Positions 6,636 to 47,756 of a DNA stretch of 64,000 nucleotides are shown here, in pieces. The notes under the pieces are model-generated. The model was not told the origin of the DNA. It made no database searches and was given only the letters and a program-made list of their open reading frames with translations. This DNA comes from a virus: positions 25,484-89,483 of the IMG/VR virus record IMGVR_UViG_3300030098_005498, one strand, 5' to 3'. Each line of letters opens with the position of its first letter. The stretch's first letter is position 1. Position numbers and translations under genes: made by a program.

Positions 6636-6993
6636 AATTAAATGTTACAATTATAATTTCATTGATTCTACACCATTCTAATTTGTCTCTATCTCTTGCC
6701 TGGGCACGAAAAAAGGAGAGCTTATCTCTATAATGAAATTTATTAAACTTGAAATGTTGTTCGCCGTGAACTTCAATAATTAGATTTCTGTTTGGTATAT
6801 AAAGATCAGCACGTAAAACGCTTTTTCTTATTGAAGTTTTAGTGCCCGGAAGTGAAACTTCCTCTAATATTTTATCATACGGATACCATATATCAAGAGC
6901 CCTTTTGGCTTTTTTATGTAGTTTAGATCTTTTCCCACCTCCAGATTTGGGATTCCATTTATAGTTTTTTCCGTCTAATCCTATTACTTTCAT
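6595..6993 (-). CDS. Vsr/DUF559-like PD-(D/E)XK endonuclease
   Basis: LRADLYIP...IIEVHGEQH...RDRDK motif. Confidence 0.75.
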   Translation of the reverse strand: MKVIGLDGKNYKWNPKSGGGKRSKLHKKAKRALDIWYPYDKILEEVSLPGTKTSIRKSVLRADLYIPNRNLIIEVHGEQHFKFNKFHYRDKLSFFRAQARDRDKLEWCRINEIIIVTFNYDENENEWRAKIN

Positions 6994-7894: not shown

Positions 7895-8985
7895 TTGGAC
7901 AATCCTTCCTTTATCAATTTTTCTAACACGTCTACTAGAACGGGATTAGATTTTAAAAAATCATACAATTTGTTTTGACCTTGAAACTTGCCAGCCTTAA
8001 TGGAAAATAACTCTTCGTCATTTTCAACATCAATATCTGGAAATATTTCTTTAGCTATATCTTTATACATTTCTAAGAAACTACAAGTGAACCAAGCACC
8101 GGATTTGTTGATCAAACCTATATCTAATGCTAAAGTTAGTATTTCTTGTGTTTTATCAATACCATGTCCATAACGAATATAGCTTTGTACTTGGCCTCCA
8201 GGCGGTCCCATTGATGAACAAATAATTTTCCAATTTACAAGTTGTCCAATTTTTTTACCGTCGTCATCATCCCAAAACTTCACCGCCGAAACCTTTTCTC
8301 CACCACCAGCAATTTCCATTCTTGTATCTGCTTGATATTGTATTTTATTGCCGCCATCAGCCATTTTAGCTTTGCCAAATCCAGATGTGTTAGCGATATA
8401 ATGCGTAATCGCTATTACTAGTCCACGTTGCCTTGGTAACAATTGGCCCACCTTTTTGGTAAAAATACTAAGAATTTTGGGCAATCCTGCACGACCTGGA
8501 CTAAAGTCATTATCTAATTCTTTTTCTGGAATAAGAGAAGAAATAGAGTCAATAATAACAGCAGCACCATGATTGTCTGGATGACTCATCATTAGGTATG
8601 CCCATTCTAGAAATTTTTCAGCGGGGATCGGTTTGTCTTCAGGTGCCATAATCAACATCTTTTCTGGATCAAGACCGTCAACTTGAAAATTCATATCTTT
8701 GAATCTTCCCTCGGCATCAATATAGATTACATTTCTACCTAACTTTTGACAGTTGGCAGCAATTTGCATAGCTGTGGTGGTTTTACCAGATTTAGGATCT
8801 CCTGTCAGTGTGACCCAGCTTCCTTCTTTGATCCCGCCTCCAAGTGCAATGTCAATTGCGGGGCCGACAGATATTATTTCATAGTTACTTTTTTCTTGTA
8901 ATACCTCGGCCCCCGTTTTGATAATTTGACCATAGTCTTTTGCGGACTTTTTTAAGTAATCTGGTAACTTATTTGCCACTGCCAT
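7891..8985 (-). CDS. recA: RecA/UvsX recombinase
   Basis: DIALGGG, GDPKSGKTT, YIDAE, IIDSISSL, GGNKIQY, KSGAWF. Confidence 0.93.
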   Translation of the reverse strand: MAVANKLPDYLKKSAKDYGQIIKTGAEVLQEKSNYEIISVGPAIDIALGGGIKEGSWVTLTGDPKSGKTTTAMQIAANCQKLGRNVIYIDAEGRFKDMNFQVDGLDPEKMLIMAPEDKPIPAEKFLEWAYLMMSHPDNHGAAVIIDSISSLIPEKELDNDFSPGRAGLPKILSIFTKKVGQLLPRQRGLVIAITHYIANTSGFGKAKMADGGNKIQYQADTRMEIAGGGEKVSAVKFWDDDDGKKIGQLVNWKIICSSMGPPGGQVQSYIRYGHGIDKTQEILTLALDIGLINKSGAWFTCSFLEMYKDIAKEIFPDIDVENDEELFSIKAGKFQGQNKLYDFLKSNPVLVDVLEKLIKEGLSK

Positions 8986-11273: not shown

Positions 11274-11942
11274 TTATTGCAATCTAGTCAAAATTTTAGA
11301 TATGATATCATTTCTAACAATATCTTCATTTGTTAGTTCGCATATCGCCACACCTTCTAGATTTTCTAAAGAAGACATACATCTTTTTAAGCCACCAAAA
11401 GCATCACCTCTAAGGTCTGTTTGATCTAGGTCTCCGTTTATAACAGCTTTTGAGCCAATCCCAATACGTGTTAAAAACATTTTAATTTGTTCAAAGGTTG
11501 CATTTTGGGCTTCGTCAAGTATCATAAATGTATTATGAAAATTTCTTCCACGCATATACTCTAGTGGGCATATTTCTATAGTATTTGTTGCCCTCATTGA
11601 GTTGTGTGTTTCTACGCCCAAGTATAGTTTTATTTCTTCTATAGTCGGAACCATGTACGGGTGAATTTTTTCATTTAAAGTTCCGGGTAAAAATCCAATA
11701 CCTCTACCGGATTCTACAACTGGTCTAGTTATAACAATTTTTTCTACTTTGTTTGATAAGATATATTCACAAGCCATGCCTACTGCTACAGCAGTTTTTC
11801 CAGATCCGGCGGGACCAGAGCAAAATGTTATATCCTGTTCCGCCATAGATATAATATAATTTTCTTGATTCTCCGTTTTGGGTTTTAGTTTTTTTCTAGA
11901 AGGTCTAATTGGCTGTTTCTGAGATGATCGTTTACGACCCAT
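11274..11942 (-). CDS. phoH: PhoH-like ATPase
   Basis: GPAGSGKT, TRPVVE, GFLPG, YMRGR, LDEAQN, GDLDQTD. Confidence 0.95.
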   Translation of the reverse strand: MGRKRSSQKQPIRPSRKKLKPKTENQENYIISMAEQDITFCSGPAGSGKTAVAVGMACEYILSNKVEKIVITRPVVESGRGIGFLPGTLNEKIHPYMVPTIEEIKLYLGVETHNSMRATNTIEICPLEYMRGRNFHNTFMILDEAQNATFEQIKMFLTRIGIGSKAVINGDLDQTDLRGDAFGGLKRCMSSLENLEGVAICELTNEDIVRNDIISKILTRLQ

Positions 11943-11961
11943 GCTATCTCCCTACAAAAGA

Positions 11962-13155
11962 TTAATAGATTGCACCATCTAACGGGACATAATTTTGTGC
12001 TGTCGCTCCTTGATATAAAAATAAATCACTGCAATCATTTTGAAAACTAAGTGTTGCTTCTATATTTCCACCTCCGGTATCACCTCCCGTTACATCAAAA
12101 CTTGTCAAATAATTTCTATTACTTAAATCCCATTGAAAAAGATCAGTTGGGCTAGATTCTGGATAAAGTATATTTGTTAAAATACGAATTTGTCGATTTG
12201 TTTGATACTTACCAATACCTTTGTTTTCAGCTCCATATGTTCCTGCTGTATGGTAGGTGTCTGTAAGGGTGTGATTTTGATCTGCACTGCTTACAAAATA
12301 GTGAGATCTAACAAGACCTGTAAAACTAGCCGTTATTGCAACTGGTAATTCCATAACCTTCCATCTGTTAACCTCTGAGGACGTATCACTACCTCTCCAC
12401 ACGCCAGTATCTGGAAGGTCTCTGTAGCTAAAAGAACAATCTATATTGATACTTTGTAGTCCAAAAATTGGAGATCCTTGAAACTCATTACCTATATTGA
12501 ATGCTTCATTTACCTCTTTTGGAAATATACAGTTCGATATATCAATGTCTTTTCTGGTTAAATTTTGGGCACCTTGTGGTAATGAACCAGCAGAGCTTGC
12601 CGCATCAGAGAAGTCAGTCCATGTAGAATCATTTAATTGATCATACATTTGGGATTGAAAAGTAAGATCTTCTGTTATAGTTCCATCGACACTTATATTG
12701 TACGATATATTGGTCAATAATGAATGTTTAAATATATAGACAGAATATTCTGCTCCTAACCCGGCAGCACCAATATTGTTTAAAGAATCTGAACCATAAA
12801 AAATAGCTATATCATAATCTTTTACAGATTCACCACCTGGACCGACTCCGTTTGAGCTAAGTAAATGACCGGCTTCATAGGTAGTTTGAGATGTCTTATA
12901 AAAAAACCCAGAACCGTTGCCTGCAAGCGGTAGCGTTCTAGAAATTGTTATAACAAAATTTGTTTTACCATATCTAGTAAAAGTTTGGTTTAATCTACCA
13001 TTATCAAAAAGTGTTTCAGGAGCTATTTCTCTATTGATACCTATAGCCTGAACTCCAGGTAGCCAGTTAGTTGCACCCGTTCCGCCATCTCCAGTCCAAA
13101 CGCCTTGACAGGCATAAAATATTCTATTATTTGGTGTAGTAAATGGATCGCTCAT
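11962..13155 (-). CDS. putative virion structural protein (tail tube-like)
   Basis: NNRIFYACQ start, G/T/S-rich beta composition with an internal two-domain repeat; preceded by the putative late-promoter motif. Confidence 0.5.
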   Translation of the reverse strand: MSDPFTTPNNRIFYACQGVWTGDGGTGATNWLPGVQAIGINREIAPETLFDNGRLNQTFTRYGKTNFVITISRTLPLAGNGSGFFYKTSQTTYEAGHLLSSNGVGPGGESVKDYDIAIFYGSDSLNNIGAAGLGAEYSVYIFKHSLLTNISYNISVDGTITEDLTFQSQMYDQLNDSTWTDFSDAASSAGSLPQGAQNLTRKDIDISNCIFPKEVNEAFNIGNEFQGSPIFGLQSINIDCSFSYRDLPDTGVWRGSDTSSEVNRWKVMELPVAITASFTGLVRSHYFVSSADQNHTLTDTYHTAGTYGAENKGIGKYQTNRQIRILTNILYPESSPTDLFQWDLSNRNYLTSFDVTGGDTGGGNIEATLSFQNDCSDLFLYQGATAQNYVPLDGAIY

Positions 13156-31747: not shown

Positions 31748-32224
31748 TCAGTAATTACAACGTGAAAAAACTGCACACCAGTAAATTCTTCCAGATTTCG
31801 ATTTGGCAGCACCAAATCCAACAGCGTTATATCCGCCTAAAATGTTGGACCTATGACCGCCGGAGTTCATCCAAGATCTAGTAACCTCACCATAGCCAGA
31901 TTGACCATAGGCAATATTTTCTCCAATTCCGCCAAAACCAGACCCAACTCGTCTAGATGGGCTTGATCCATTTCTTCCTGTATGACTAAGCCTGTTACTG
32001 CTAGCCATCCAATCTGCATGTTTTTGTGCGGCATCTGTAAGTCTTTTATCTAATACTAAGGCACGACGACCATTTCGAGAACGTTCGCGATTATGAGTAA
32101 GCAAAAGATTATCATTTAATTTCTTTACTAATCTAACTCTTTTTTGTTGTGAAGTTTCGGTCTCCTGCGTCCACGCATTGGAAACCAAGCAACAACAAAC
32201 AAGCAAACTTAAAACACTTCTCAT
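31748..32224 (-). CDS. secreted CAP/SCP-domain protein
   Basis: Signal peptide; HNRER, AAQKHA, SHTG, GENIAYG, WMNSGGHRSNIL. Confidence 0.9.
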   Translation of the reverse strand: MRSVLSLLVCCCLVSNAWTQETETSQQKRVRLVKKLNDNLLLTHNRERSRNGRRALVLDKRLTDAAQKHADWMASSNRLSHTGRNGSSPSRRVGSGFGGIGENIAYGQSGYGEVTRSWMNSGGHRSNILGGYNAVGFGAAKSKSGRIYWCAVFSRCNY

Positions 32225-34401: not shown

Positions 34402-34920
34402 CTATTTATCAACTCTTTTTGATGATAACATAACCGCAGATTCAATAAAATCTTTATCGTCAATTTGATTCGACGGAATGTAAAAAATATTGATAGTTTC
34501 TGAAACCATTTTTAATACTTTGTGATAGTCTTCATTCCCAATTACACATTTAGGATCTGACACATCTGTAAATATAATTTCTCTTATACCACATTGGTAT
34601 AATGCCTGCAAACAATACAGACAGGGAATTGCGGTTACATAAGCCGAGGCCCCCAGTGTGCTACGTCCTAGTCTTGTGCAGTTATAGATCGCATTTGCTT
34701 CAGCATGAATCATGTATGGATATTTTTCTGGCCTACTTTTAGGAAGTGCATCATCATCAACATTTCTAATAAAACCATTGTATCCACTAGATAACATAGT
34801 TTTATCTTTAACCAATACACAGCCACATTGTGTTTGCTGATCAGGACTTGATCTTGACCAAAAGATTGCTTCCAATAAAAATTTATTATCCCATTTTGTT
34901 AATTTTCTAGATTCAAACAT
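34402..34920 (-). CDS. dCMP deaminase
   Basis: SPD..TQCGCV, SGYNG, HAEANA, PCLYC. Confidence 0.92.
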   Translation of the reverse strand: MFESRKLTKWDNKFLLEAIFWSRSSPDQQTQCGCVLVKDKTMLSSGYNGFIRNVDDDALPKSRPEKYPYMIHAEANAIYNCTRLGRSTLGASAYVTAIPCLYCLQALYQCGIREIIFTDVSDPKCVIGNEDYHKVLKMVSETINIFYIPSNQIDDKDFIESAVMLSSKRVDK

Positions 34921-34945
34921 GCTACATCCTTAATAGTTCAATATT

Positions 34946-35212
34946 TGGAATGGCGAATTGGGTAACAAGGCTCGCCACACCCCGTGCTACTTACGCAGCA
35001 AGTGCAAGAGTTTCCTCTGCATTTAAAAATTTGATCTTGTTTTTAGGTAGCCTCAAGACCAACTACCACATGCAACCATTACTTCTATTTGTACGTCGAA
35101 TCTAAGTCACCCCCTTTTTTAATTTATCGAGTGGAGGTGGGGGGAATTGCACCCCCGTCCGCAGCAAATGCCTATAACAGCGTCTACATGTTTAGTTCTC
35201 CAAAAGAAGAAC
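34946..35212 (-). ncRNA. ssrA: circularly permuted (two-piece) tmRNA, tag AEETLALAA
   Basis: The acceptor piece (...CTAAACATGTAGA...GGAC-GGGGG TGCAATT CCCCC-CACCTCC-A, ending ~35132) lies upstream of the 5' GGGGGTG at 35114. G3-U wobble present; GATTCGAC D-loop analogue; tag ORF at 35020-34991; outer boundaries approximate. Confidence 0.9.
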
Positions 35213-35215
35213 AAA

Positions 35216-35258
35216 GCCAATCCTGGGAATCGAACCCATAATATACCTATTGGTTGGC
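35216..35258 (-). ncRNA. tRNA-like minihelix (acceptor stem + T arm only)
   Basis: GCCAACC...TGGG TTCGATT CCCA GGATTGGC; no D arm or anticodon arm. Confidence 0.4.
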
Positions 35259-35262
35259 TGTA

Positions 35263-35370
35263 TCAATTTAACCACAGCGGTGCTACACTTGTAACAAACA
35301 ACATTACACAAATAGCCCAAAATACCGGATTTAGAACGCAAGTAAACATCCACTGTGAAATAAGCCTCAT
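35263..35370 (-). CDS. 35-aa hydrophobic small protein
   Basis: MRLISQWMFTCVLNPVFWAICVMLFVTSVAPLWLN with AGGAG RBS; below the ORF-track cutoff. Confidence 0.5.
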   Translation of the reverse strand: MRLISQWMFTCVLNPVFWAICVMLFVTSVAPLWLN

Positions 35371-35471
35371 CTTTTTTCTCCTATACAATAAAAAGTTAAC
35401 GATGTGGGAATAACTACCATTATGGATTATTACGCATTATGAAAAGAAAATGCGAATATATTGTCTATTTG

Positions 35472-36839
35472 TCAAACTATTATCTCTTCTATTGAAAATG
35501 TTTTTGCTTCCTCTCCGTTAAAGTGAAAAGGAATTTGATCTTCCAATGGAACAGAGTATTTGGCACATCTGCCACAGTTTCTATTTCCACCATTACCACC
35601 GTGGTTGGTGGCTGAATATTTTGAAATATGTTGCACCGGAGATGGGTCAAAGAACCACATAGATCTACCCATTTTGTTCATAATCCCCCCTATAGCGGTA
35701 TCGCTATTTTGGATAGTGTGTGGATTTTTTTCTCTTTCCCTTTTCTTGTTTTCCCATGCTGACTTTGTTTTTATTCTGGCACCTCTCCAGTTTTCTATCA
35801 TCGGATGTTGCATCACCTGTTCTAAAACTTTTCTCGGCCAAATAACTGCACAAGTTCCCCATAGTGCCCTTGTGGGAATATGATTCAGTCCAATAGGTCT
35901 ATAGGGTTTGCTTTTAAGATGTTGTCTTTTACTATAATGCCTGGGTGTATATAATGATACAAATCCAGTTGTGGTACAGGGCCATAAAAATTTTTCAGAA
36001 AAAGACTTTGAGTCTGGGTGGAACAATGAATCATCTTGTACTGTCATTATAATATCTGCATCACTATTGTCAAGTGCATATCTACAGCTTGATATCCAAT
36101 TCCACCAAATTCCTTTTCTTTCTTCGTGAACAATTAGGTTTTCTTTATATTCATCATTTATTTGATACACTCCAGGTTCGGCAAATATATATGGTCTCCA
36201 GCCATTTATTAGCAAAGAATCTAAACAAAGTTGCAATGTTGGTTCTTTTCTTGGTGCTGTTGTCACAGCTACAAACCAATTGTGTTTTTGCCTGCCTTCT
36301 TTTTCTTCCGCTCTTCTTATAGCCGTTTGAACCAGATTTGTACAAACCTTACGGGTAGCAAGGTCTGGAACCCATGACAAAAAACTACGTTTATTTTTTT
36401 CGTTTATTAATCTTTGCACTATGTGATGAATATTTCTCTTGCATCCTTCAATGCCCCATAAGTTCATTTTTTTTGCATAGTTTCTACAGTCGCACGACGG
36501 TTTTTCCATCCACTCTGGAATCATTTTCTTCAATTCTGTACCCGGACCTTCGCCAAAATATTCTTTTGCTTTTTCACGAACTTCTACTCTTGTCTTGTCT
36601 TTATTTGCCAATCTTGCAAATCTAATGCCTTTATTATCTGGAGATTTTTCATATCCTCCAGCGTTTTTACACAATGTACAATGAACTGTTTCAACATATA
36701 CTGTTTGTTTGTTGTTATTTAAACTCGTGGCAAATTTACAAATCATATTATTTGTTGTCGGGCATTTTGTACGCATATTACATGGAAGGTTTTCAAACTG
36801 TTGTGTTTCAACCACTCTAATATTTTTTTTGTTATCCAT
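35472..36839 (-). CDS. Cys-rich domain fused to a GT2-like glycosyltransferase domain
   Basis: GPGTELKK..CDC..MNLWG..C module; VTTAPR, TVQDD (DxD-like), PSPVQH. Confidence 0.6.
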   Translation of the reverse strand: MDNKKNIRVVETQQFENLPCNMRTKCPTTNNMICKFATSLNNNKQTVYVETVHCTLCKNAGGYEKSPDNKGIRFARLANKDKTRVEVREKAKEYFGEGPGTELKKMIPEWMEKPSCDCRNYAKKMNLWGIEGCKRNIHHIVQRLINEKNKRSFLSWVPDLATRKVCTNLVQTAIRRAEEKEGRQKHNWFVAVTTAPRKEPTLQLCLDSLLINGWRPYIFAEPGVYQINDEYKENLIVHEERKGIWWNWISSCRYALDNSDADIIMTVQDDSLFHPDSKSFSEKFLWPCTTTGFVSLYTPRHYSKRQHLKSKPYRPIGLNHIPTRALWGTCAVIWPRKVLEQVMQHPMIENWRGARIKTKSAWENKKREREKNPHTIQNSDTAIGGIMNKMGRSMWFFDPSPVQHISKYSATNHGGNGGNRNCGRCAKYSVPLEDQIPFHFNGEEAKTFSIEEIIV

Positions 36840-36899: not shown

Positions 36900-39800
36900 T
36901 TACTCGTCGCACGATTTTTGTTGCCCAGATGCATCTTTATAACCGCATGGTATTATTATAGTTTGATTAGCATATCCAATACAAGGATTTGTGTCTAATC
37001 CATAACAGTCACAGGAGTTATTCTCTCTCCCCTTGCAGTCATTGATGAAATTAACAACGTTTTCATTTTCATCGCATTCGCAAACACATCCACCGTCACA
37101 GCATTCATTATAAATTGGATAAAATGAATATGCTGACGCTGTACAGCATCCCGTTCCAACAGTTACGCTACCAGTAGCATCTCTCAATAGAGTGTCATCA
37201 TACCAGGGACTAAGTATAACCTTTCTGAAATCTAAGGAAGATCCTAATGCTGTTGCTGCCAAATAACCAGCAGACGTGTTTTTAACTTCATAATCTCTTG
37301 ATGTTAGACTAGCATTGTTTGGATCGTCAAAAGTGTCTGTAGATGCTTCATTGTCTAATGCAGAAGGGGCTCCGGTTATATCACTTGCTAGACAATTCGT
37401 CTTAGGAAGGTTGGTAGAATTTCCTTGTATACATCTATCAGTCGAACTAGAGGAGGTGCAATCACTAACTATAGAGTTTTTTATTGCTCCACCAGCACCA
37501 GAAACTGCCGAAACACCCCTACAGGCGTTGTTAACGGTGGTAGCGTCGTGAAATGTGCAATGGTATATACTTAGAGGTTGGTTTGATGGATTCTGGTATC
37601 TAATAAATCCACTGGTGCCACTTCCAGTGGAAGTGCTAGTAAACTTATAAATTAAAGAATTATACATATTTAAAGCGATACTATGGTTTGGCTTACCTTC
37701 TATCATGAAGTTGCCCCTATTTGACGTGGATATATTTCTCATAATACAACGTTTTATATTAATTGTTTGTGCGTTTGTATTACGAAGACTCCACATTCCT
37801 TGAAAATTCGTTCCAGGATTATTGCCATTAAAGTCAATCAATAAATCTTCAAATGTGAACTCGGGTGCATTTGCTGTCGTGCCCCAAATAAATTGATAAT
37901 TTCCGCTCCAAATAATTCTACATTTACCACCAGCTCCATTAGCCGCGACATTTCCTTCATGAGCAGTGCCACTAGCGGGACGTATAGTAACGCTGTTTAG
38001 AAAAGAGTTTGGATTAATGCCAGTAGTAGAAAATTCAATGGCTGAATTAATTGTATGATCTTCTCCACGTAGTACAAATATAACATCTTGTATATGGTTG
38101 CCCATGCTAGATAATGCAGTAAAGGCTGCCGCAATTGTAGCATAGTCATCGCTGGCGTCTGATCCAACTGTGAATGTAGCTGCTGGAGCTACGTAGGTTG
38201 GCTCATCGCTTGTATAAGTCTTATATGTACAATCTGTCACCTTTGTAAAGTTAACAGGATCTGCATCATCATCAGCAACTCTAAACCAAAGATCATAATG
38301 CATGTCAGTTGCAACTACGTCGGTAGCCCCCCCGGTTCTTTCATTTTCACAAGGAAGACGGTCCTTTCCCTTTGCCGCCGCACAATCTCTTGCACAATCA
38401 CGAACTAACCATGTCCAGGGTGCATAACGGGCTGCGGGATAACCGTGTAATTTTGTCATAGTAGCATCATCTCGCCAGAAGAATGTGCCCCCATCACAAT
38501 GCTCTTCGCAACTGGCTGGAGTTTCTTTATCCATCCATACTTTATTACAATTCGTTCCAGTGCAAGATTTTTTAACTGTAAGAGTAAAATTTTCTGGCCC
38601 AGTCGTAATTCCGGCATCAGCAGTTCCGGCTTCATTCTTTAGTTCTATATAGCTTCCACAGTATGAGAGATCAAAACCACTAATCGTATAAATGCCACTA
38701 TCTGTTCCGGTTTTTTCTACTCGATTACCTTCCGCAATACCCTTTTCAAAAGCCTGATCACACCACGCATAAGTTACACCCCCCGCACCCGCCACGCCAT
38801 CTATTCCAATTTCAGTACAGGTCAATTGATATTCATCTGGATTATCCCATGCATAGTTATTTCTAACAAAATAAATCTGTATGTCGCGTTTAGGACTACC
38901 CTCTGTGCAGGTAATATAAAATGTATAATGTGATGTTTCTTCTACTCCAGGCACTTGATTGTCGTTTTTATCAAGACATTCACATTCTATACACTCTCCT
39001 TCATGAGTTCCAATAGTGTCAGCTGGCTCATCGTTATCACAAAACTGGTTTGGAATTTCTAATTCCGCCGTGTACAATGCTTTTCCAGCCGTGCCATCAC
39101 AAAAGTTTGCGATCGCAGTATCTCCTGCATCATAATATGCTTCGTCGCTATTGTCTACCTGAGATGAAGAATCACAAATTTTAGTAAATGTCAATGTGGT
39201 TCCATTTGTGTCATTGCATCCACATGGGTCAGTGGAAGATGAAATACCGCTTATATCATCAGAAGAGTTTATTAATACCGTGAATTGTTCTGGACATGTT
39301 GTGCAGTCGCTACTGCTTGAACTAAGGTCACTACTTGAACTGGAACTACTAGAACTACTGGAGCTGCTACTCGAAGATGAACTGCTGCTGGAACTACTGC
39401 TGGAACTACTACTACTGCTACTGCTGGAACTACTACTCGAAGATGAACTACTGCTGGAGCTACTGCTTGAAGAACTGCTACTGCTGGAGCTACTGCTCGA
39501 AGAGCTGCTGCTACTACTGGAACTACTAGAGCTGCTAGAGCTACTGGAGCTACTTGAACTACTGGAGGAGCTGCTTGAAGATGAGCTACTGCTGGAACTG
39601 CTGCTGGAACTGCTGGAGCTACTGGAGGAACTGCTGCTAGAACTGCTGCTGGAGCTACTAGAGCTACTGCTTAAAGAACTAGAACTACTGGAGGAGCTAG
39701 ATTCTTCTTCACAGCATTTCTTGCCATGTCCATGACGAACCCTATCTCTAGACCCTAAACCGGGAGGGAAATACTCTTTCCAAACCCCACTCTTCGAGAC

Positions 39801-42800
39801 CCATTTTTTCTGCGGCACCGCAACGCTAACTCCGTTAACATTACGAATGACGACCCCATCCCTGGTGGCGGGTGCGGGGAAAGTCGAGAAGAAGTCGGAG
39901 TTCCCGTCTGCACCCGTGCCGTATACGTCAAGGTGATCTTGGTTATTGTCGTAGAATAATATGGTGCCGCTACTGTCAGTGCTAGACATTAATATAAATG
40001 CCTTGGTTTGTTCTTGCACAGAAGTAGACCCCAAGTTTGTCGGGTAGGTCCATGTCATATCCTGCGTGCCATTCTGTTCAACAGTATTTTCATATGAGAT
40101 TAGCCTACAAGAGATATCTGCACCCGATGGATTATTGAACCACTGGGTAGCAGGATACCAGACATACTGATAAGAAGGCTCTTGAAGATATCCGTCGATG
40201 AGTGAGTTGGTTGAGTGCCCGATAAACCGACACCGCTCTATGATCATCTGATCAAGATTTTGCTGACCTGTGCTTTGCTCCATGTCAAACACTCGCACAG
40301 TCTTGCCATTGAGATTGAAGATGCAATCACTGAACCTGACCTGTGGAGTTCCAATCTGAAAAAACATGATCGAATCTGTAGCGGGCTCCGATCCAAAGGT
40401 GCATTCTTCGCAGACAAGACTCTCTAGTGGGCCACCAGCGGTTCCGCCGGTAAAACCTGATCGGCTGAATGTGCAGTTACGGAAGATGGCTGCATCCGGC
40501 TCAAGGCCCGCTTCGAATGCAAGCGACTTGCTGAATGATGGGCCTCCTTCTCCAGTGATTTGGTATCGGTTGTCGCCCGGATCGAACACGCAGTTGGTAG
40601 CTGTGAACGTGCGGCAGTTCTGAATCTTGCACGCAGTCTGTCGCCCGTCTACACCAGAGTCGCTCTGGACATTTCTAAGTGTACAGTTGGTCATGGATGC
40701 GTTTGTGACGTAGCCCCCCGGCAGACTACCGTCGCCGCCAGTGTTCCAATTACACTCAGCATTGTTTCCTTCGGGGCCATTGGGAGCAGACTTGATTGTC
40801 CCTGTTGCGGGAGATGATGCACTACCGCTCATTGTATAAGTGTATGTGTTTGCGTCAGAAACAGTTATCGTAAATGTACCGTTATAATTTGCTTCGTTAG
40901 CACCAGATATGAAAACCTTTAAACCTGTTATTAACCCGTGAGAAGTGTGAGTTACGGTCGCTGTTGTGCCAGCACTGGTTATGGTAACTACATCGTTGGG
41001 GCCACGCGAGTCAACATCTACATCAACATTCGTAAACGAGACTGTATTCAGATCCCGATACTCAGTACCGCCATTGATGGTTCTAGCTCTAACAGTAAAG
41101 CCACGACGATTATTAGTAAGGGTAGCATCACTGACATCTACATAATCACCATAAGTCGCAATAGCGTTGTAGTCGTTGCCCGTTGCTGTGAAGTTAGTTA
41201 CAGTACAGTTGTCACCGTCGATGACAAGCCCTTCACCCGATGCTTCCCACGTAGCACCGCCAGCGGTTACAGCTTGCTGGGAAGCCATTATATTATTGAC
41301 TTGGCAATTATCTACAACGATGTTGTCACCGTCAATCACCATGCCGAGAGGAGTATTGGTCGATGCCCCCGTGTATTCATTATTGCCATCTACGATGAGT
41401 TGATCAATATCACAGTCGGAACCGGCGAACTTGACAAGATATGTCCAAGAACTGTCAGCTGGCTTTAGTGTTAGTCCATTGAATTCATAGTCTACATTGA
41501 CTGTATTAAACAGGAACTCTGATACGAGTACAACACCATCGCTAGAACAGATGATAGTGTCTCCAGATTGTGATGCTGTATTAGCATCGGAAAGTGCTTG
41601 ATTAGAGCTGGGCTGGCTGGATAGTCCGCCATACTCTGCCACTTTGACGCCTCCACGCGAGATCTCCACGGTGAAGTTGGGTTGTACTCCAACCCCTAAA
41701 CTAACACTGCCAGACGAGCTTCTTAAGGGAGAGCTAAGATACCAAGAGGTTTCCAATAATTTTGTCAAGGCATCTGTAGAACCCAGAGCTGTTCCAGATA
41801 AATATCCTAAAGATGAGCTTTTAACAGTGTAGTCTCTTGCTGTCAATGCTGCACTCGGATCTGTAAAGGTATCTGTGTCAGCTTCGTTTATAAGTCCAGA
41901 ACTACCCTGACTATCACTAGTCAGAGTATCTGTCAATGCTAAATCTGCTGCCAGTCCCTGAACAGTTCTAAAATCAGTTGTCGCATCAGCTGTTATATCA
42001 CTTACTATACTATTCTTAATTTGAGCTTGATTTGTTACGGATTGTACGTAAACACCTCTAGCAAAGTTTGAAAATCCTCCAGTTTGCACAGCATTAAAGT
42101 CATGCAATATACTATGATATATACTTAAAGTACCATCTGTGCCAGAAGACCATCTAATAAAACCACAATTAGAGTTATTAGCTGCATAACTATTTTCCAT
42201 CTTGTAAAGTAAACAATTATACAGGTTAACACTCATATCAACACCAGTTCCTGCACTCCTGATCATATATTGACCGGCAAGAGAACTTGAACTATTTCTC
42301 AAAATACAACGTTCCATTGTTAGCGATTGAGTGCCGATGGAGTCTATCTGAAAAAAAGCGTTGTTTGAAACACCACAATCGTTTCCTTGAAAGTCAATTA
42401 ATAAATCTTGAAAAAGATAGTCCGGTGAACCTGTTGTTTGTTCCCATTTAATTTGATAATCTCCACCCCAAAGTATTCTACATTTTCCACTAGAACCAAG
42501 TATTGCAAGATTACCTTGATGAGCGGCTCCAGAAAAGGGACGGAGAGTTACATTAGTAATTGCCAAATTTGTATCAATTCCAGTAGTTGAAAACGTAACA
42601 TTGGAGTTTATTGTATGATCTTCTCCACGCAATTCAAAAATTACTGTAGCGTTGGGAATAAACTCTAAATCAGTAAGAGCTGCTTCCACTGTAGCATAAA
42701 CATCACTACTATCCGAGCCAACTGTATAAGTATATGATGACGGAACGTATTCATTATTACACCCAACTGTAACGTCTCCAACCCTCATTCTTAGGGGTTT

Positions 42801-43784
42801 GGTATCATAGTAGGGTGTCGCTAATGGTTTTCTTAATACATCTGTAGTTCCTAGTGCTGTCCCGGCACTATAACCAGCTGACGTGTTTTTAACAGTGTAG
42901 TCTCTTGATGTCAAAGTAACATTGTTTGGGTCTACAAAAGTGTCTGTGTCCGTTTCACTATCTAAAGAGTCTGGACTGCCTGTTGAGTCACTGGTTAACA
43001 CGTCTGTTTTAGCAAGATTGGCAGAACTTCCCTGTATACATTTTGCATCGCCAGACCCAGAAGCTGTTACACTGCTTACTATAGAGTTTTGTATTACTCC
43101 ACCTGGGCCTGAAGACGCAGACACACCCCTAGCGTTATTGTCTGTAGTAGTAAGATCATGAAATGTACAATGACGTATACTAAGCGGTGCGGTTGTACTT
43201 CCCTGAAGCCTAACGAAACCACTAGCACTTCCAGTACTTCCAGAAGTATTTGTCATCTTATAGAATAGACAACTAAATAGATTAATGCTAATATCACTTC
43301 CAGGCTTTGATTCCATTATGTATTGGCCTCTACTGCTGGAAGAGGTATTTCTAAGAATGCAACGCTCTAAGGTGACAGTTTGTGCATTAGTGTTACGAAA
43401 ACTAAAAATACCCTGAAAATTACTTCCAGCATTGTTTCCTTGGAAGTCTATTAAAAGATCCTGAAATTTAAAATTGGGCGTATTGCTTGTAACTTCCCAG
43501 AGCCATTGATAGTTACCACCCCAGAGTATTCTACATTTACCACCAGAACCATCTGCGGCTAGATCTCCTTCGTGTGCAGTTCCACTAGCGGGACGTATGA
43601 TAACGTCAGAAATGGCTGAATTTGGATTAATGCTAGTAGTGGAAAACTCAGTATCAGCATTGATCGTATGATCTTCACCCTGTAATTCAAAAATTACTTC
43701 TGTATCAGTAAGGGTTGATAGAGCAGAAAATGCGTTTGTAATTGTTGCATAAGTGCCCGTAGATCCAACAGTATAGGTTGCCAT
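36900..43784 (-). CDS. 2294-aa surface/virion protein with three repeated beta-helix-like domains, a poly-Ser linker and Cys-rich regions
   Basis: Three copies of a ~340-aa unit (TVGS, GEDHTIN, GKCRI, DLLIDF, RDY.VK); ~130 nearly uninterrupted Ser. Confidence 0.8.
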   Translation of the reverse strand: MATYTVGSTGTYATITNAFSALSTLTDTEVIFELQGEDHTINADTEFSTTSINPNSAISDVIIRPASGTAHEGDLAADGSGGKCRILWGGNYQWLWEVTSNTPNFKFQDLLIDFQGNNAGSNFQGIFSFRNTNAQTVTLERCILRNTSSSSRGQYIMESKPGSDISINLFSCLFYKMTNTSGSTGSASGFVRLQGSTTAPLSIRHCTFHDLTTTDNNARGVSASSGPGGVIQNSIVSSVTASGSGDAKCIQGSSANLAKTDVLTSDSTGSPDSLDSETDTDTFVDPNNVTLTSRDYTVKNTSAGYSAGTALGTTDVLRKPLATPYYDTKPLRMRVGDVTVGCNNEYVPSSYTYTVGSDSSDVYATVEAALTDLEFIPNATVIFELRGEDHTINSNVTFSTTGIDTNLAITNVTLRPFSGAAHQGNLAILGSSGKCRILWGGDYQIKWEQTTGSPDYLFQDLLIDFQGNDCGVSNNAFFQIDSIGTQSLTMERCILRNSSSSLAGQYMIRSAGTGVDMSVNLYNCLLYKMENSYAANNSNCGFIRWSSGTDGTLSIYHSILHDFNAVQTGGFSNFARGVYVQSVTNQAQIKNSIVSDITADATTDFRTVQGLAADLALTDTLTSDSQGSSGLINEADTDTFTDPSAALTARDYTVKSSSLGYLSGTALGSTDALTKLLETSWYLSSPLRSSSGSVSLGVGVQPNFTVEISRGGVKVAEYGGLSSQPSSNQALSDANTASQSGDTIICSSDGVVLVSEFLFNTVNVDYEFNGLTLKPADSSWTYLVKFAGSDCDIDQLIVDGNNEYTGASTNTPLGMVIDGDNIVVDNCQVNNIMASQQAVTAGGATWEASGEGLVIDGDNCTVTNFTATGNDYNAIATYGDYVDVSDATLTNNRRGFTVRARTINGGTEYRDLNTVSFTNVDVDVDSRGPNDVVTITSAGTTATVTHTSHGLITGLKVFISGANEANYNGTFTITVSDANTYTYTMSGSASSPATGTIKSAPNGPEGNNAECNWNTGGDGSLPGGYVTNASMTNCTLRNVQSDSGVDGRQTACKIQNCRTFTATNCVFDPGDNRYQITGEGGPSFSKSLAFEAGLEPDAAIFRNCTFSRSGFTGGTAGGPLESLVCEECTFGSEPATDSIMFFQIGTPQVRFSDCIFNLNGKTVRVFDMEQSTGQQNLDQMIIERCRFIGHSTNSLIDGYLQEPSYQYVWYPATQWFNNPSGADISCRLISYENTVEQNGTQDMTWTYPTNLGSTSVQEQTKAFILMSSTDSSGTILFYDNNQDHLDVYGTGADGNSDFFSTFPAPATRDGVVIRNVNGVSVAVPQKKWVSKSGVWKEYFPPGLGSRDRVRHGHGKKCCEEESSSSSSSSSLSSSSSSSSSSSSSSSSSSSSSSSSSSSSSSSSSSSSSSSSSSSSSSSSSSSSSSSSSSSSSSSSSSSSSSSSSSSSSSSSSSSSSSSSSSSSSSSSSSSSSSSSSSSSSSSSSSDLSSSSSDCTTCPEQFTVLINSSDDISGISSSTDPCGCNDTNGTTLTFTKICDSSSQVDNSDEAYYDAGDTAIANFCDGTAGKALYTAELEIPNQFCDNDEPADTIGTHEGECIECECLDKNDNQVPGVEETSHYTFYITCTEGSPKRDIQIYFVRNNYAWDNPDEYQLTCTEIGIDGVAGAGGVTYAWCDQAFEKGIAEGNRVEKTGTDSGIYTISGFDLSYCGSYIELKNEAGTADAGITTGPENFTLTVKKSCTGTNCNKVWMDKETPASCEEHCDGGTFFWRDDATMTKLHGYPAARYAPWTWLVRDCARDCAAAKGKDRLPCENERTGGATDVVATDMHYDLWFRVADDDADPVNFTKVTDCTYKTYTSDEPTYVAPAATFTVGSDASDDYATIAAAFTALSSMGNHIQDVIFVLRGEDHTINSAIEFSTTGINPNSFLNSVTIRPASGTAHEGNVAANGAGGKCRIIWSGNYQFIWGTTANAPEFTFEDLLIDFNGNNPGTNFQGMWSLRNTNAQTINIKRCIMRNISTSNRGNFMIEGKPNHSIALNMYNSLIYKFTSTSTGSGTSGFIRYQNPSNQPLSIYHCTFHDATTVNNACRGVSAVSGAGGAIKNSIVSDCTSSSSTDRCIQGNSTNLPKTNCLASDITGAPSALDNEASTDTFDDPNNASLTSRDYEVKNTSAGYLAATALGSSLDFRKVILSPWYDDTLLRDATGSVTVGTGCCTASAYSFYPIYNECCDGGCVCECDENENVVNFINDCKGRENNSCDCYGLDTNPCIGYANQTIIIPCGYKDASGQQKSCDE
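39309..39703 (-). repeat. poly-serine coding tract
   Basis: ~130 codons mixing AGY and TCN Ser codons. Confidence 0.95.
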
Positions 43785-43808: not shown

Positions 43809-46800
43809 TTAAAATTCTTCATGTTCAATCAATATTGCTGCTGAGTTATCAGTTTTTCCAATGATGATTCTCTCTGTTCCAGTGCCCGTAGTAACACCTA
43901 AAGAAGTATAATCAGTTCCCGATGCTTTAACTTCCCATCCGTCTGGCAAAACATAACTTAAAAAATCAGTATAACTACGTCGTCCTCTAGGGGTTGGTAA
44001 TCCAACCTGATTGGGGCCAATATCTCTACGATTTTCAGTTTTAGTGGTCATAAATGATAGATTTGAGCTATCAGTAAGCGTAATATATGGACCTTGAAGA
44101 TTATCAATACCCGGCAAGTCTGTTTCATTGGCACCCTCTCCATATAGTGAGCCGCTTTGATTGGCTATCATATTTTCTTTTGTTCCATAGTCGCTGTCCC
44201 CAAAATTGCCGGGAAGTGGAGTTTGTGCGGCAACATCGGATTCGTTCCACATATTGAGTAAATCGTTTGTTACTGGACTAAGTATTTCATGTCCATTTTG
44301 ATCAATCAAATACGCTGTGTACATATTGGGAACCGAACTTTGTCCTAGTAAATTCTTATCAACATCTGCGTTAAACCAAGCATTTCTATCCCAATAAGTA
44401 TATCTTGTAGCGATTGGACTTCCGGTAGTACCAGATGTTGGACCGTCTCCTATTTTATAACTAGTTGTGGAGAAATATCCTGAGCTTTCTTGTAAATATA
44501 TAGAGTTTGTCCAGTACTGACTAGCGTTTGCCTCTAACCTTGGGGCTCTTGACCATTGATATTGGCAACATGCAATATTACCAATCATATTTACACTGGC
44601 ACCACTTGTCTTTATTTTGTAAACACCGTCTGGAGAATTAACTAACTGCATTCCTGTGAATTGATTATTGACTAACCAATGAGGCACACTTCCAACATTT
44701 GATTGGCAAGATATAATTCTATATCCAGAAAATGAACTACCTCGACGCTGAGTGCAAATAAGAATAGGGAAATCCTGATCGGGACCATTAGTGTTTTGAT
44801 ATTCAGTTCTGGTTGGATATGACCCACTCATTCTTGTGGATATCTTGCAACTGCTAGATGTCCAATCTGATGTTGCGGTCCAAGTGTACAAAAATCTATC
44901 TGCAACATAACGTCCAGCGGACACAGTGTCAATAAGGCCCGAAACTGCTGATCCACCTTCAGTCAAGGACACTTGAAAAGTGTTTGTTGTTGAGTTTATT
45001 ACATAATATTCATTACTTGAGGTGGGCCTGTTTCCAGTAGTGAGGCCACTACTAGTAGCATATGTTTCTTCGTTCAAGCCAGTTGGTATTGCTGTATTTT
45101 GACTGCCAATAAATACAACTCTGTCATTATCGCTAAAACCATGATTATTAGCTGTGAATGTATCCCCGCCAGACAATGTATAAAGTTGATAATTTCGTTG
45201 TTGTATAGCTCCCGATGAGTCGGTGTTATTGAAGGCTACGGATGGGCTAGTGGTTAGATCCCAATTATCATAACCGTTCACAACTCCATTACTAGTAATT
45301 GTAAATTCACCGTAATATCTTGGATGGGAATTGTAATAATATCCATTGGAAGCGTTGCCAATTGTTGCAGGCGTGCCGCCTTCAAGATTTGTATTAGACG
45401 TATTCATACCGTGATTAGCTTTGTTGTGATGAATAACATGACCGCCATCACTTTCATCTGATTCAAACAAATCATCATATAAGGCATAGAAATTGTTATG
45501 ATGAACTTCATTGTGCAATACTAAGTTTTGCCCACCAGAACCCCCGGTGTGGGTGAAGGAATTTTCATAGAAATTACTCCAATCAGACCATTGAATAACA
45601 GTAGATGTAGTACGCATATCCCAACCTTCATGCCCCCAATAGAAGTTTGCGAATCCGGTACGAGCATCGTTTGGGTAATATCCTGGGAAAATAGTACAAT
45701 CTTCTATGTTCCACCATTTGTTTGTTTCCCCGTTATTTCCACCCGTATAAAACCCACCATGACTATCATATCTTTCACCACTATCTGCTAGTGCGTGAAT
45801 GTCCACATTTTGAATGTCTGGATTTTTAATTTCAACCCTTGTAAATGTTATACCATAAGAATCAGAGGTACTAGAACTCGAAGGTCCATATATGGCAAAA
45901 GTATCAATATCTCCACTTAAATCGTTTCTCCAATTTTTAACTCTAAAATTATCAAAGATAAGCCAGTTAACACCACCAGCAACAGTAGCAAAACTCATTC
46001 TAGGAAGTTCTGTAGTATTTCCTTGTCCTTGTATGTATATAGGATTAAGTTCAGTTCCTACAATACTTATTCCTTCTAACCGATTAGTACCAGTTTTGTC
46101 AGAAAAATCTCCAGCAGGAATGTTGATAATATCTCCAGCGGCAGCGGGAGTCCCTCCGGCACCAGTACATCCCAGTAACTGACGGATTTCAGTAAGTGTG
46201 GTTGGATTGTGCGTTGTTCCCCCCGTGGGTAATACGGGTCTTTGGCGTGTTCTAAACGTTGAGGTTATAATATATGAACCTCCTTGATTAGCTCCATTTG
46301 CATAAACGCCATTAGAATTATTTAATGTAATTTGTATATCATACTCTGTATTTGGGCTAAGACGCATGATGCAACCCGAGATATTGAATCTATAGGTTTC
46401 CCAAGTTTGTGCCCCTCTTGTTTGCCTAGCGTTAACTGCTCTATACCACGTCGTTGTTCCGGTTCTTTTATAGCGTACTTCGGCTGTTGTGTTTTTTCCG
46501 TAATCTCCCCTCGTATGAATTCTAAAGTTGCAAGTTTCGTAGGTAACATCTCCAGTCCATTCAACAAGATATACTTCTTCTGCAAAGGGGGTGTTGATAT
46601 ATCTACCGTCCGCAGTACCAGTTCCAGTCCAGTCTGCATTTGACACATTAAATGTTCCATTGGGGCCACTAGAATGATCTGTTATAGTATAGGTTGTACC
46701 AGTGGTGAAACCTTGGTCATTAGCAGGAATTGTTCCAGCACCAATTGTCTCAAATTGTATATATTCAGCAAAGTCTGTAGTGTCCCAGTCGCCTAAAGTT

Positions 46801-47756
46801 GGAAAATCTGTTAATGTAATAGTATCAGCGGTAGTGTCTACCGTATAAGCATACTGAAAACCAAAATCATCAGTTGGTGCCCCCGTCCAGCTCTGTGTTG
46901 TAAATCCCCATGTAGAACTACTACTTTCTCCGGTATTGGAACCTGGATCATTTATAGCGGGCTCTGTAGTAGAACTTCCCGGGTCTTTGAAGTGTGTTTG
47001 AGACCACAAACCATGCACGACTTCCATCCAATCTTCAAGCTGTTGCAAATTCCAGTCAGCGGTAGCACAGCCTCCAACAACTCTTAAAACTCCATTATCA
47101 TCAACTCTTGATCCAGTAAGATTGATAGTTGTACTGTTATCTTTTACTACTGCACCTAGACCATCTCTAAATTCTTTTCTCTCTATTACATCACTTCCTG
47201 AAGCGGAGGTTAAAAGTTCTTCATATCTCTCCCACTCAGTTGCTGCGGAAGGAGAAGGTGTAGATGTCGCTGGATTACCCTTTACACCAAGTTCAAGACC
47301 TACTTTCGCATATCCTTTTTCATCGACACTACTAAGAAATCTTCCTACAACAGTGTCTGAACCACCATCAATTCCAGCAGCAACGCTTGGTGTAGCTATT
47401 TTTCCACTATGCCCCAGATACGCCAAATCTCCACCGCTTGGCGTGCCCTCTAAATCATTAGTAACTACCCAACCCTTTTTGACAAGGCATACCTTACCAC
47501 CCTTTGGGGATTGGTCAGCCTTTCCCGATTGTAGCTTTCTTCTGCTAAGATCACTATCTACAACATCGTTAATCAATAATCCTACAGGAATCTTTCCAGA
47601 AGGATCTGCGGAATAAGTTACCAAAGACGAGCCTTGATCCATAGCGGCCCCAGAACCAGCCGTGTCATAAACTGTCATTCCACCACGTTCAGCCGTCTCA
47701 TTCATAAAAAAAGAAATATCTGTTTGAAGTGATGAACGGTCTTGTTTCAGGGCCAT
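43809..47756 (-). CDS. 1315-aa protein: capsid cement-like N-terminus + FN3-like + pectin-lyase-like beta helix
   Basis: The N-terminal ~160 aa (PVGLLINDVV, KGGKVCLVKKGWVVTN, VGRFLSSVDEKGYAKV) resemble capsid decoration proteins; AAAGDIINIPAG beta-helix cap. Confidence 0.6.
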   Translation of the reverse strand: MALKQDRSSLQTDISFFMNETAERGGMTVYDTAGSGAAMDQGSSLVTYSADPSGKIPVGLLINDVVDSDLSRRKLQSGKADQSPKGGKVCLVKKGWVVTNDLEGTPSGGDLAYLGHSGKIATPSVAAGIDGGSDTVVGRFLSSVDEKGYAKVGLELGVKGNPATSTPSPSAATEWERYEELLTSASGSDVIERKEFRDGLGAVVKDNSTTINLTGSRVDDNGVLRVVGGCATADWNLQQLEDWMEVVHGLWSQTHFKDPGSSTTEPAINDPGSNTGESSSSTWGFTTQSWTGAPTDDFGFQYAYTVDTTADTITLTDFPTLGDWDTTDFAEYIQFETIGAGTIPANDQGFTTGTTYTITDHSSGPNGTFNVSNADWTGTGTADGRYINTPFAEEVYLVEWTGDVTYETCNFRIHTRGDYGKNTTAEVRYKRTGTTTWYRAVNARQTRGAQTWETYRFNISGCIMRLSPNTEYDIQITLNNSNGVYANGANQGGSYIITSTFRTRQRPVLPTGGTTHNPTTLTEIRQLLGCTGAGGTPAAAGDIINIPAGDFSDKTGTNRLEGISIVGTELNPIYIQGQGNTTELPRMSFATVAGGVNWLIFDNFRVKNWRNDLSGDIDTFAIYGPSSSSTSDSYGITFTRVEIKNPDIQNVDIHALADSGERYDSHGGFYTGGNNGETNKWWNIEDCTIFPGYYPNDARTGFANFYWGHEGWDMRTTSTVIQWSDWSNFYENSFTHTGGSGGQNLVLHNEVHHNNFYALYDDLFESDESDGGHVIHHNKANHGMNTSNTNLEGGTPATIGNASNGYYYNSHPRYYGEFTITSNGVVNGYDNWDLTTSPSVAFNNTDSSGAIQQRNYQLYTLSGGDTFTANNHGFSDNDRVVFIGSQNTAIPTGLNEETYATSSGLTTGNRPTSSNEYYVINSTTNTFQVSLTEGGSAVSGLIDTVSAGRYVADRFLYTWTATSDWTSSSCKISTRMSGSYPTRTEYQNTNGPDQDFPILICTQRRGSSFSGYRIISCQSNVGSVPHWLVNNQFTGMQLVNSPDGVYKIKTSGASVNMIGNIACCQYQWSRAPRLEANASQYWTNSIYLQESSGYFSTTSYKIGDGPTSGTTGSPIATRYTYWDRNAWFNADVDKNLLGQSSVPNMYTAYLIDQNGHEILSPVTNDLLNMWNESDVAAQTPLPGNFGDSDYGTKENMIANQSGSLYGEGANETDLPGIDNLQGPYITLTDSSNLSFMTTKTENRRDIGPNQVGLPTPRGRRSYTDFLSYVLPDGWEVKASGTDYTSLGVTTGTGTERIIIGKTDNSAAILIEHEEF

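Follow-up and report, generated by a model that had tools for sequence, protein, structure and literature searches.

Two-piece transfer-messenger RNAs (tmRNAs; ssrA) are already known from phages. In the passages drawn on here, Buchholz et al. (2022; PMC9004378) described a two-piece ssrA in the OM43 phage Melnitz, counted two-piece forms in 53 of 133 unique phage tmRNAs, 50 of these 53 being marine or aquatic, and assigned the phage two-piece forms to alpha, beta/gamma, and cyanobacterial host lineages. With such RNAs published in 2022, the presence of a two-piece tmRNA in a phage is no novelty by itself. Older surveys, in the sections cited, list one-piece phage genes only (PMC4131195), and the tmRNA database paper, likewise cited in part, gives 79 bacteriophage sequences and a "re-permuted" mitochondrial gene in Jakoba libera (PMC11915505). 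Here we describe a circularly permuted tmRNA gene at positions 34946-35212, minus strand, of a 64,000-nt stretch of viral DNA (the window, i.e., the whole stretch that was analyzed), which corresponds to bases 25484-89483 of an 89,483-base IMG/VR virus record (IMGVR_UViG_3300030098_005498; 57% complete according to CheckV). An original prediction, made from the sequence of this DNA, had proposed a phage-encoded, circularly permuted, two-piece tmRNA and had described phage tmRNAs as mostly one-piece. The first statement is borne out by the viral record, by the phage replication and nucleotide-metabolism module in which the gene lies, and by the sequence-level tmRNA tests that it passed, whereas the second is out of date in view of the 53 two-piece forms counted above. 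In our reading, to which we assign a probability of about 0.75, the gene encodes a working two-piece tmRNA that is the phage's own rather than a recent capture from a host, has been inherited within a phage lineage, and has undergone one switch of gene order there.

The Caulobacter-type two-piece tmRNA of alphaproteobacteria (Rfam model RF01849) shares with the window gene its gene order, a hairpin before the P2 helix, the domain with a G3-U pair, and a reduced number of pseudoknots. However, the sequences of P2, pseudoknot 1 (PK1), and the 3' pseudoknot differ between the two, and the window gene does not encode CCA, belongs to a phage lineage, and has one-piece sisters. Melnitz, the Pelagibacter phage Mosig, and some cyanophages resemble the window phage in carrying a marine, permuted ssrA with no phage SmpB reported, as far as the cited part of PMC9004378 goes. 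Unlike the published phage two-piece tmRNAs, the window gene stands in a backbone of the DnaE type that is not T4-like, and its family spans a phage lineage and occurs in both gene orders.

All elements of a permuted tmRNA could be read on the minus strand between 34946 and 35212, where the 3' tRNA half precedes the 5' half, and each element named in the original prediction, including the spacer, the tag AEETLALAA, and the G3-U pair, was recovered in its place. ARAGORN likewise flagged a permuted tmRNA (34900-35221, minus strand) with this same tag. In the direction of transcription, a 5' hairpin (GTTCT/AGAAC; 35195-35212) caps the acceptor piece directly upstream of the P2 strand and matches a hairpin in the alpha model RF01849 (positions 40-57); by eye, a hairpin of other sequence stands at the same place in ten permuted relatives (L188, L204, L206, L207, L208, L210, L215, L220, L264, and L232). 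The acceptor piece (35132-35194), delimited by the ARAGORN 3' tRNA domain and the RF04321 alignment, opens at 35194 with the P2 3' strands, which begin with TAAACATGTAGA and are followed by GGAC; it continues with the T arm (GGGGG/TGCAATT/CCCCC; 35156-35140) and the acceptor 3' strand CACCTCC (35139-35133), and ends at the discriminator A (35132), CCA not being encoded. A 17-nt, A/T-rich spacer (35115-35131), which would be removed from the precursor, separates it from the coding piece. The latter starts with GGGGGTG, GATTCGAC, and TGCATGT (35068-35114; ARAGORN 5' tRNA domain), G1 being 35114 and the P2 5' strands ending in CATGT (35072-35068). Then come PK1 (GGTAG/CTACC and GGTCTTG/CAAGATC; 35033-35067), identified by fold and covariation, a TAAAT resume context, the tag frame GCA...GCG TAA (34991-35020; AEETLALAA and stop, as called by ARAGORN), and, at the 3' end of the coding piece, a single 3' pseudoknot (GGGG/CCTT and GGCGA/TCGCC, with the loop GTTACCCAA; 34952-34983). 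With a 7-bp acceptor stem containing the G3-U pair, a T arm, and the discriminator A, a domain like that of tRNA-Ala is thus present.

Covariance-model searches, proposed as a check with the original prediction, passed the gathering scores of two models and fell short of those of three. The general permuted model RF04321 matched over its full length (positions 1-213) with 105.3 bits (gathering score 47; E 1.7e-19), and the alpha model RF01849 gave 64.8 bits (gathering score 50) over positions 40-274 of 355 only. The beta model RF01850 (60.2 bits, gathering score 84) and the cyanobacterial model RF01851 (40.5 bits, gathering score 70) covered their full lengths but remained under their thresholds, and the standard model RF00023 (gathering score 47) yielded only 13.2 and 12.6 bits on two separate fragments in the genome to which the window belongs. 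The beta score is uninformative because alphaproteobacterial genomes give 45-72 bits on the same model and none of 151 genomes sampled from the phylum passes its cut-off; the 3' pseudoknot, which aligns to the matching part of the beta consensus, is the sole beta-like part of the window gene.

To assess the fold, we derived it from the window gene and scored it on eight permuted relatives, with slid pairing partners and 500 shuffles as controls. Pairing was found in 90.1% of 456 cells, compared with 37-44% when partners were slid, and 31 of 58 pairs showed changes on both sides; none of the 500 shuffles reached the observed values. The G3-U pair was invariant in all eight sequences, and the T arm (97% of cells paired) and P2 helices (90-100%) were well kept, the latter with compensatory changes. 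The two helices of PK1 (helices 8 and 9) were paired in 90.0% and 90.9% of cells, with both-sided changes in 4 of 5 and 5 of 7 pairs, and those of the 3' pseudoknot (helices 10 and 11) in 96.9% and 100%, with both-sided changes in 3 of 5 pairs of the second stem. The lower figure for the 5' hairpin (52.5% of cells) arises because MAFFT misaligns it. In addition, the nine-codon tag frame is kept in all 42 distinct copies of the family described below, and AEETLALAA itself occurs in 15 distinct copies by way of five synonymous nucleotide versions. Covariation supports the fold of the window gene, and, judged from its sequence, the gene is very probably functional.

Conservation of this kind also bears on what the RNA may do. 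It is conceivable, but in our judgment very improbable, that the RNA is made without taking part in rescue, acting instead as a decoy that titrates host SmpB, as an inhibitor of host tmRNA, or in phage-specific tagging. In keeping with a decoy, neither the 89-kb record of the window nor five related records (the completeness of one being 94%) yielded an SmpB gene, and the tmRNA of phage DS6A, which consists of a tRNA-like domain only, is reported in the cited parts of PMC4131195 and PMC11915505 as a likely inhibitor; selective tagging of host proteins has been suggested by Buchholz et al. in the part of PMC9004378 cited. A pure decoy, however, would have no need of a tag frame, resume context, PK1, and 3' pseudoknot, all of which are conserved here with compensatory or synonymous changes.

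That the locus might be an assembly artefact or a dead relic, i.e., a misassembly or a decaying fragment beside a tRNA, was also considered; the original prediction had named an assembly artefact among the findings that would speak against it, and an odd, truncated tRNA-like minihelix does lie immediately upstream. Nonetheless, the arrangement recurs in a second IMG/VR contig (L017), which is 96.5% identical over 375 nt, contigs from two further studies carry 34402-35500 in one piece with one base difference, and at least half of the sampled words were present in 17 marine metagenome runs, with six studies listed. The same order in independent assemblies therefore rules out an assembly artefact, and the same order in 35 distinct family sequences, together with the strong covariation, makes a relic next to inconceivable.

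Apart from L017, the relatives of the window gene were not found by its T arm. A search with the T-arm motif returned 58 viral contigs, in 40 of which ARAGORN called a permuted tmRNA and in none a standard one, but only L017 otherwise resembles the window, the rest being mostly unrelated viral permuted tmRNAs. Among 83 loci with the motif in GTDB genomes, mostly Omnitrophota and Chloroflexota, 74 were standard and two permuted. Since the motif marks mostly one-piece genes of unrelated phyla, it is uninformative on kinship. Searches with the P2 strand and the PK1 region, extended to metagenome contigs, instead revealed a family whose members share TAAACATGTAGA in the P2 3' strand, AGTAATnnCTGCATGT, a two-stem PK1 followed by TAAAAA, a nine-codon tag, and one 3' pseudoknot (GGGG...CCTTnTTAyCCAA), CCA usually not being encoded. 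Examination of 96 loci gave 58 complete copies (43 permuted and 15 standard); since IMG/VR and metagenome loci in some cases represent one and the same contig, the fairer count is that of the 42 distinct sequences, 35 permuted and 7 standard. All come from uncultured marine viral and metagenome contigs.

Hidden Markov models (HMMs) built for the two halves of the family, A and B, separated its members (37-70 bits for A and 113-153 bits for B) from 62 alphaproteobacterial loci (maxima 21.9 and 19.9 bits), one-piece bacterial tmRNAs (36.3 and 38.1 bits), and other viral permuted tmRNAs (34.1 and 41.4 bits); for half A, selection of the comparison sets with the T-arm motif of the window itself biases their scores upward. 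No blastn match to three family queries was found among 50,697 deposited phage genomes. The P2 motif with zero or one mismatch was absent from 401 Pseudomonadota genomes, and with two mismatches it occurred in seven of the 401, the level expected by chance from a reversed-pattern control. A phage two-piece tmRNA is known as a kind, but the family of the window gene is new. In the literature found, a phage tmRNA family with both gene orders is undescribed, with the reservation that the supplementary lists of PMC9004378 and PMC11915505, which were not covered, might hold a member. Six members (L210, L215, L220, L264, L204, and L206) are missed by ARAGORN because of unusual T loops or long spacers, and Rfam at gathering thresholds misses those with long spacers as well as L215; the family is therefore likely under-annotated in viromes.

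Since the window gene passes the alpha model, a host origin deserves attention. A marine phage might recently have captured an alphaproteobacterial (e.g., SAR11-type) two-piece ssrA, a scenario that we consider rather improbable. It would accord with the 64.8 bits on RF01849 (gathering score 50) and the 52-78 bits of relatives, with the marine habitat, with Pelagibacter phage Mosig as the best phage match of the ribonucleotide reductase (RNR) large subunit (56.6%), and with a T loop of GGCAGTA type in some relatives that is like the alpha consensus; pelagiphages and the OM43 phage Melnitz provide published precedent in the cited part of PMC9004378. An approximately unbiased (AU) test did not reject a clade of the permuted family copies with alpha references (p 0.11), in a kinship comparison in which, of the alpha, beta, and cyanobacterial two-piece lineages of bacteria, the alpha one was represented. 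On the other hand, the alpha match was local (positions 40-274) in eight of nine family members tested, whereas 10 of 11 other viral tmRNAs typed as alpha matched the whole model with 69-120 bits. Alphaproteobacterial genomes score 89-171 bits on RF04321 almost without exception, yet the 62 alphaproteobacterial genes reach no more than 22 bits on the family HMMs. A permuted tmRNA was tallied in 148 of 151 genomes, a count to which one unpublished genome (G043) contributes and on which none of our claims depends. The alpha and beta models, moreover, cross-hit widely, as the 45-72 bits of alpha genomes on the beta model illustrate. The alpha references occupy a long, separate branch of the trees, the 3' pseudoknot motif was found in none of 30 alphaproteobacterial loci, and the family queries had no blastn match to deposited phage tmRNAs. 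Finally, the gene is conserved across phages whose DnaE proteins are 51-70% identical, which argues against its recent arrival.

The family occurs in both gene orders. Two members, L212 and L213, are standard, one-piece genes according to ARAGORN, with the tag AEPSLALAA and 83 and 97 bits on RF00023. Compared with the window gene, the halves of L213 lie in opposite order and are 83% (65 nt) and 80% (51 nt) identical. RF00023 confirmed all 11 standard metagenome loci submitted (83-121 bits), and RF04321 confirmed seven of eight permuted loci, the one missed having a 611-nt spacer. The one-piece members (L212, L213, L238, and others) share with the window gene homologous halves, PK1, the 3' pseudoknot, tags of the AE..LALAA type, and the lack of an encoded CCA; they differ in their opposite order and in a linker of 24-143 nt that joins the halves in place of an excised spacer. 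Since one RNA family is present in both orders within one phage lineage, the order must have switched inside that lineage.

That these carriers are indeed one lineage is shown by their DNA polymerase. The polymerase of the window phage is of the DnaE (Pol III alpha) type and is split into two open reading frames (ORFs; 6928-8550 and 11487-12977, minus strand, of L007, which is contig G000:C1, upstream of the window), lying ~2.9 kb apart with four ORFs between them. The two parts carry a PHP domain with the Pol III alpha NTPase, and the finger, HhH, and OB domains, and their best match in cultured phages has 28-32% identity. The N-terminal part was found in 7 of 10 IMG/VR records bearing the family, with 51-70% identity, whereas cultured phages do not exceed 32%; the remaining three records, in which it was not matched, are fragmentary (6-53% complete). 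With cultured phages as outgroups, the DnaE tree united the carriers in a single clade (support 100/100). The match to the N-terminal part of DnaE is broken into three separate pieces in the related record G302.

To examine the direction of the switch, we built a tmRNA tree from re-ordered halves, with 54 rows and, in a smaller set, 24 rows. In the 54-row tree the standard copies formed one clade (89/89; 92% of bootstrap trees) nested among permuted copies. In the DnaE tree the one-piece carrier was likewise nested among two-piece carriers, which formed a clade of their own in only 4% of bootstrap trees, with this carrier being the sole one-piece carrier that could be placed on the tree. Since the one-piece clade lies within permuted diversity in both best trees, a reversal from two pieces to one is indicated rather than a fresh permutation; this direction is favored but not established. 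The Jakoba libera gene provides, in the part of PMC11915505 cited, a precedent for a change from permuted to standard order, the direction favored by both best trees. It differs in that it is mitochondrial and reduced there, whereas both phage forms keep the tag frame, PK1, and pseudoknot.

The opposite course, in which a compact one-piece tmRNA was ancestral and the permutation arose anew in the phage, e.g., by tandem duplication and loss of the outer halves, appears unlikely to us. It would make the clade of L212 and L213 the surviving ancestor and give the two-piece form an origin separate from the alpha, beta, and cyanobacterial ones. Several features are in its favor. The P2 (ACAUG/CAUGU, in the context TAAACATGTAG) and the layout of PK1 are like those of one-piece L135 and L137 and unlike the GGUUG/CAACC of RF04321 and the beta model; a 145-row FastTree tree put the family on the one-piece bacterial side, away from the alpha clade; half B scored higher with one-piece bacterial genes (maximum 38.1 bits) than with the 62 alpha genes (19.9 bits); and the alpha match is local in nearly all members tested. 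AU tests, furthermore, did not reject a single clade of all permuted copies in either tmRNA tree (p 0.077 for the 24-row set and 0.17 for the 54-row set) or of permuted carriers in the DnaE tree (p 0.32). Against these stand the nesting of the one-piece clade, or its carrier, within the permuted forms in both best trees, the far greater diversity of permuted forms (35 distinct versus 7), and the fact that the top outgroup for half B, at 41.4 bits, is itself a permuted viral group. Nor were duplication scars, relic half-genes, or tandem copies seen around the 58 family loci, where only matches of ~10 bits like tRNA T arms turned up. It is doubtful that a compact one-piece tmRNA of a phage gave rise afresh to the two-piece state within the phage genome, independently of the alphaproteobacterial, betaproteobacterial, cyanobacterial, and mitochondrial events and with the L212/L213 clade as ancestor. 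The original prediction had suggested an independent permutation in a phage lineage: an order switch in phages did take place, but the best trees indicate a reversal, and the AU values of 0.17 and 0.32 allow both directions.

Our preferred reading, that of an inherited and working two-piece tmRNA of the phage itself, also has evidence weighing against it. The window gene passes the cut-off of the alpha model, the alpha clade is left standing at p 0.11 in a comparison in which alphaproteobacteria represented the bacterial two-piece lineages, the half-A scores are inflated in the comparison sets, and the AU values for the permuted copies and carriers, with a single one-piece carrier on the DnaE tree, leave the fresh permutation standing. 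The record that contains the window is 57% complete. The two pieces, the charging, and the tagging are deduced from sequence rather than from RNA ends. As regards expression, one metatranscriptome contig (168 nt, depth 4) is identical to 34970-35137, but as a contig it cannot show RNA ends, and since it spans the spacer, it represents either unprocessed precursor or contaminating DNA. A second metatranscriptome run gave a contig inside the dCMP deaminase gene, and the contigs of RNA runs X19 and X20 leave most of the 1.1-kb stretch uncovered and are uninformative on absence or RNA ends. We take the metatranscriptome contigs as a weak hint of expression of the window gene.

If the gene works as its sequence predicts, its maturation may be pictured from known two-piece tmRNAs. 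A single precursor comprising the acceptor piece, the 17-nt spacer, and the coding piece would be transcribed, host RNase P would cut 5' of G1 (35114), and host 3'-end enzymes would trim past the discriminator A (35132). Since the window gene encodes no CCA, the host CCA-adding enzyme would add it. The two RNAs would be held together by the 7-bp acceptor stem and ~20 bp of P2 helices, charged by host alanyl-tRNA synthetase by way of the G3-U pair, and delivered to stalled ribosomes by host SmpB and EF-Tu, upon which translation would resume at GCA and add the degradation tag AEETLALAA. The 89-kb record also showed no CCA-adding enzyme, and SmpB was missing as described above; the phage would therefore need host SmpB, alanyl-tRNA synthetase, RNase P, and CCA-adding enzyme. 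The probable benefit is ribosome rescue sustained during infection by a large phage that also carries tRNA genes; rescue, or replacement of host tmRNA cut by defense nucleases, was the use suggested in the original prediction. The family would have been inherited in uncultured marine phages of roughly 150 kb with a split DnaE, with a single order switch in the lineage for which the best trees favor a two-piece ancestor and a later reversal in one subclade.

The spacer of the 43 permuted family copies measures 6-129 nt, with outliers of 361 and 611-618 nt. Homing-type endonuclease genes of 185-187 codons lie in the spacers of L204 (4256-4813, plus strand) and L206 (4690-5253, minus strand). They match phrog_3322 (2.5e-27 and 8.3e-23) as well as HNH and endonuclease VII families in PHROGs, and a Pfam search gave no match for the spacer ORFs; the TGA stop of the L204 endonuclease falls in the GGGGGTGA that starts the coding piece. 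Once excised, the spacer would be free to vary and may offer a safe landing site for mobile endonuclease genes. Two one-piece genes, L227 (471-1184, plus strand) and L285, have an insert of ~600 nt, apparently protein-coding, between the coding and acceptor parts; L227 scores 107.9 bits on RF00023 over 714 nt, and a TAAACATG duplication in it forms a hairpin ahead of the P2 strand.

The minihelix upstream of the gene (35215-35258, minus strand), identified from the sequence and a ViennaRNA fold, has an acceptor stem of 7 bp and a canonical T arm (GGGTTCGATTCCC), but only 12 nt where the D and anticodon arms would be. In L017 an A-to-G change makes its acceptor stem perfect. The position of the minihelix is occupied in L264, which after L017 is the closest relative, by a TTGACA-17-TATAAT promoter and a complete tRNA-Arg(tct). 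In family relatives generally, the tmRNA gene lies downstream of tRNA genes. We read the minihelix as a relic of this tRNA-Arg(tct), though it might instead serve in processing the 5' end of the acceptor piece. A promoter-like TTGATA-17-TATTAT (35266-35238; 10 of 12 positions matching) overlaps it, but such sites are no commoner in the sequence than in shuffles (7 found, 6.6 expected). A 35-codon ORF for a hydrophobic peptide, preceded by AGGAGA (35263-35370, minus strand), can be read between a 455-aa gene and the tmRNA.

The long ORFs of the window are all on the minus strand, and its phage module comprises a DnaB-like helicase, a primase, a UvsX-like recombinase, both RNR subunits, and a dCMP deaminase; glycosyltransferases and Ig-like and beta-helix proteins are also encoded. 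The dCMP deaminase gene (34402-34920, minus strand; phrog_174, 3.5e-30; PF00383, 1.2e-20) starts 26 nt past the tmRNA region, and a terminator scan found no terminator-like site between the two. Two giant ORFs (36900-43784 and 43809-47756, minus strand; 2294 and 1315 aa) have no Pfam match and a weak one to phrog_9998 (8e-08); adjoining Ig-like, coiled-coil, and beta-helix proteins, they probably represent an undescribed kind of virion or tail protein. A transposase-like gene (58299-59796, minus strand; phrog_506, 6e-20) stands directly beside tRNA-Arg(tct) and tRNA-Ile(tat), and a gene with a CAP/cysteine-rich secretory protein domain (PF00188, 3.5e-20) occupies 31748-32224 (minus strand). 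Neither a glutamine riboswitch nor a manA RNA was found in the window. Elsewhere, a glutamine riboswitch (L025, 339-387; 49.5 bits) and a manA RNA (L057, 7795-8009; 73.1 bits) lie near alpha-type permuted viral tmRNAs, a pairing of riboswitch and tmRNA that echoes the one reported for Melnitz in the part of PMC9004378 cited.

Until now, the only clues to how tmRNA becomes permuted, and to how easy and reversible this is, have come from ancient events that set entire bacterial classes apart. In the family described here, halves that are up to about 80% identical occur in related genomes, so that a rearrangement can be compared base by base and is directly testable. Part of the "alpha-type" tmRNA signal in marine viromes is a phage-borne family that standard finders often miss. 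Even if the two-piece state is the older one rather than a fresh origin in phages, these marine phages provide natural, closely related forms of a single tmRNA in one piece and in two, with a spacer that tolerates 6-618 nt, a homing-type endonuclease gene included.

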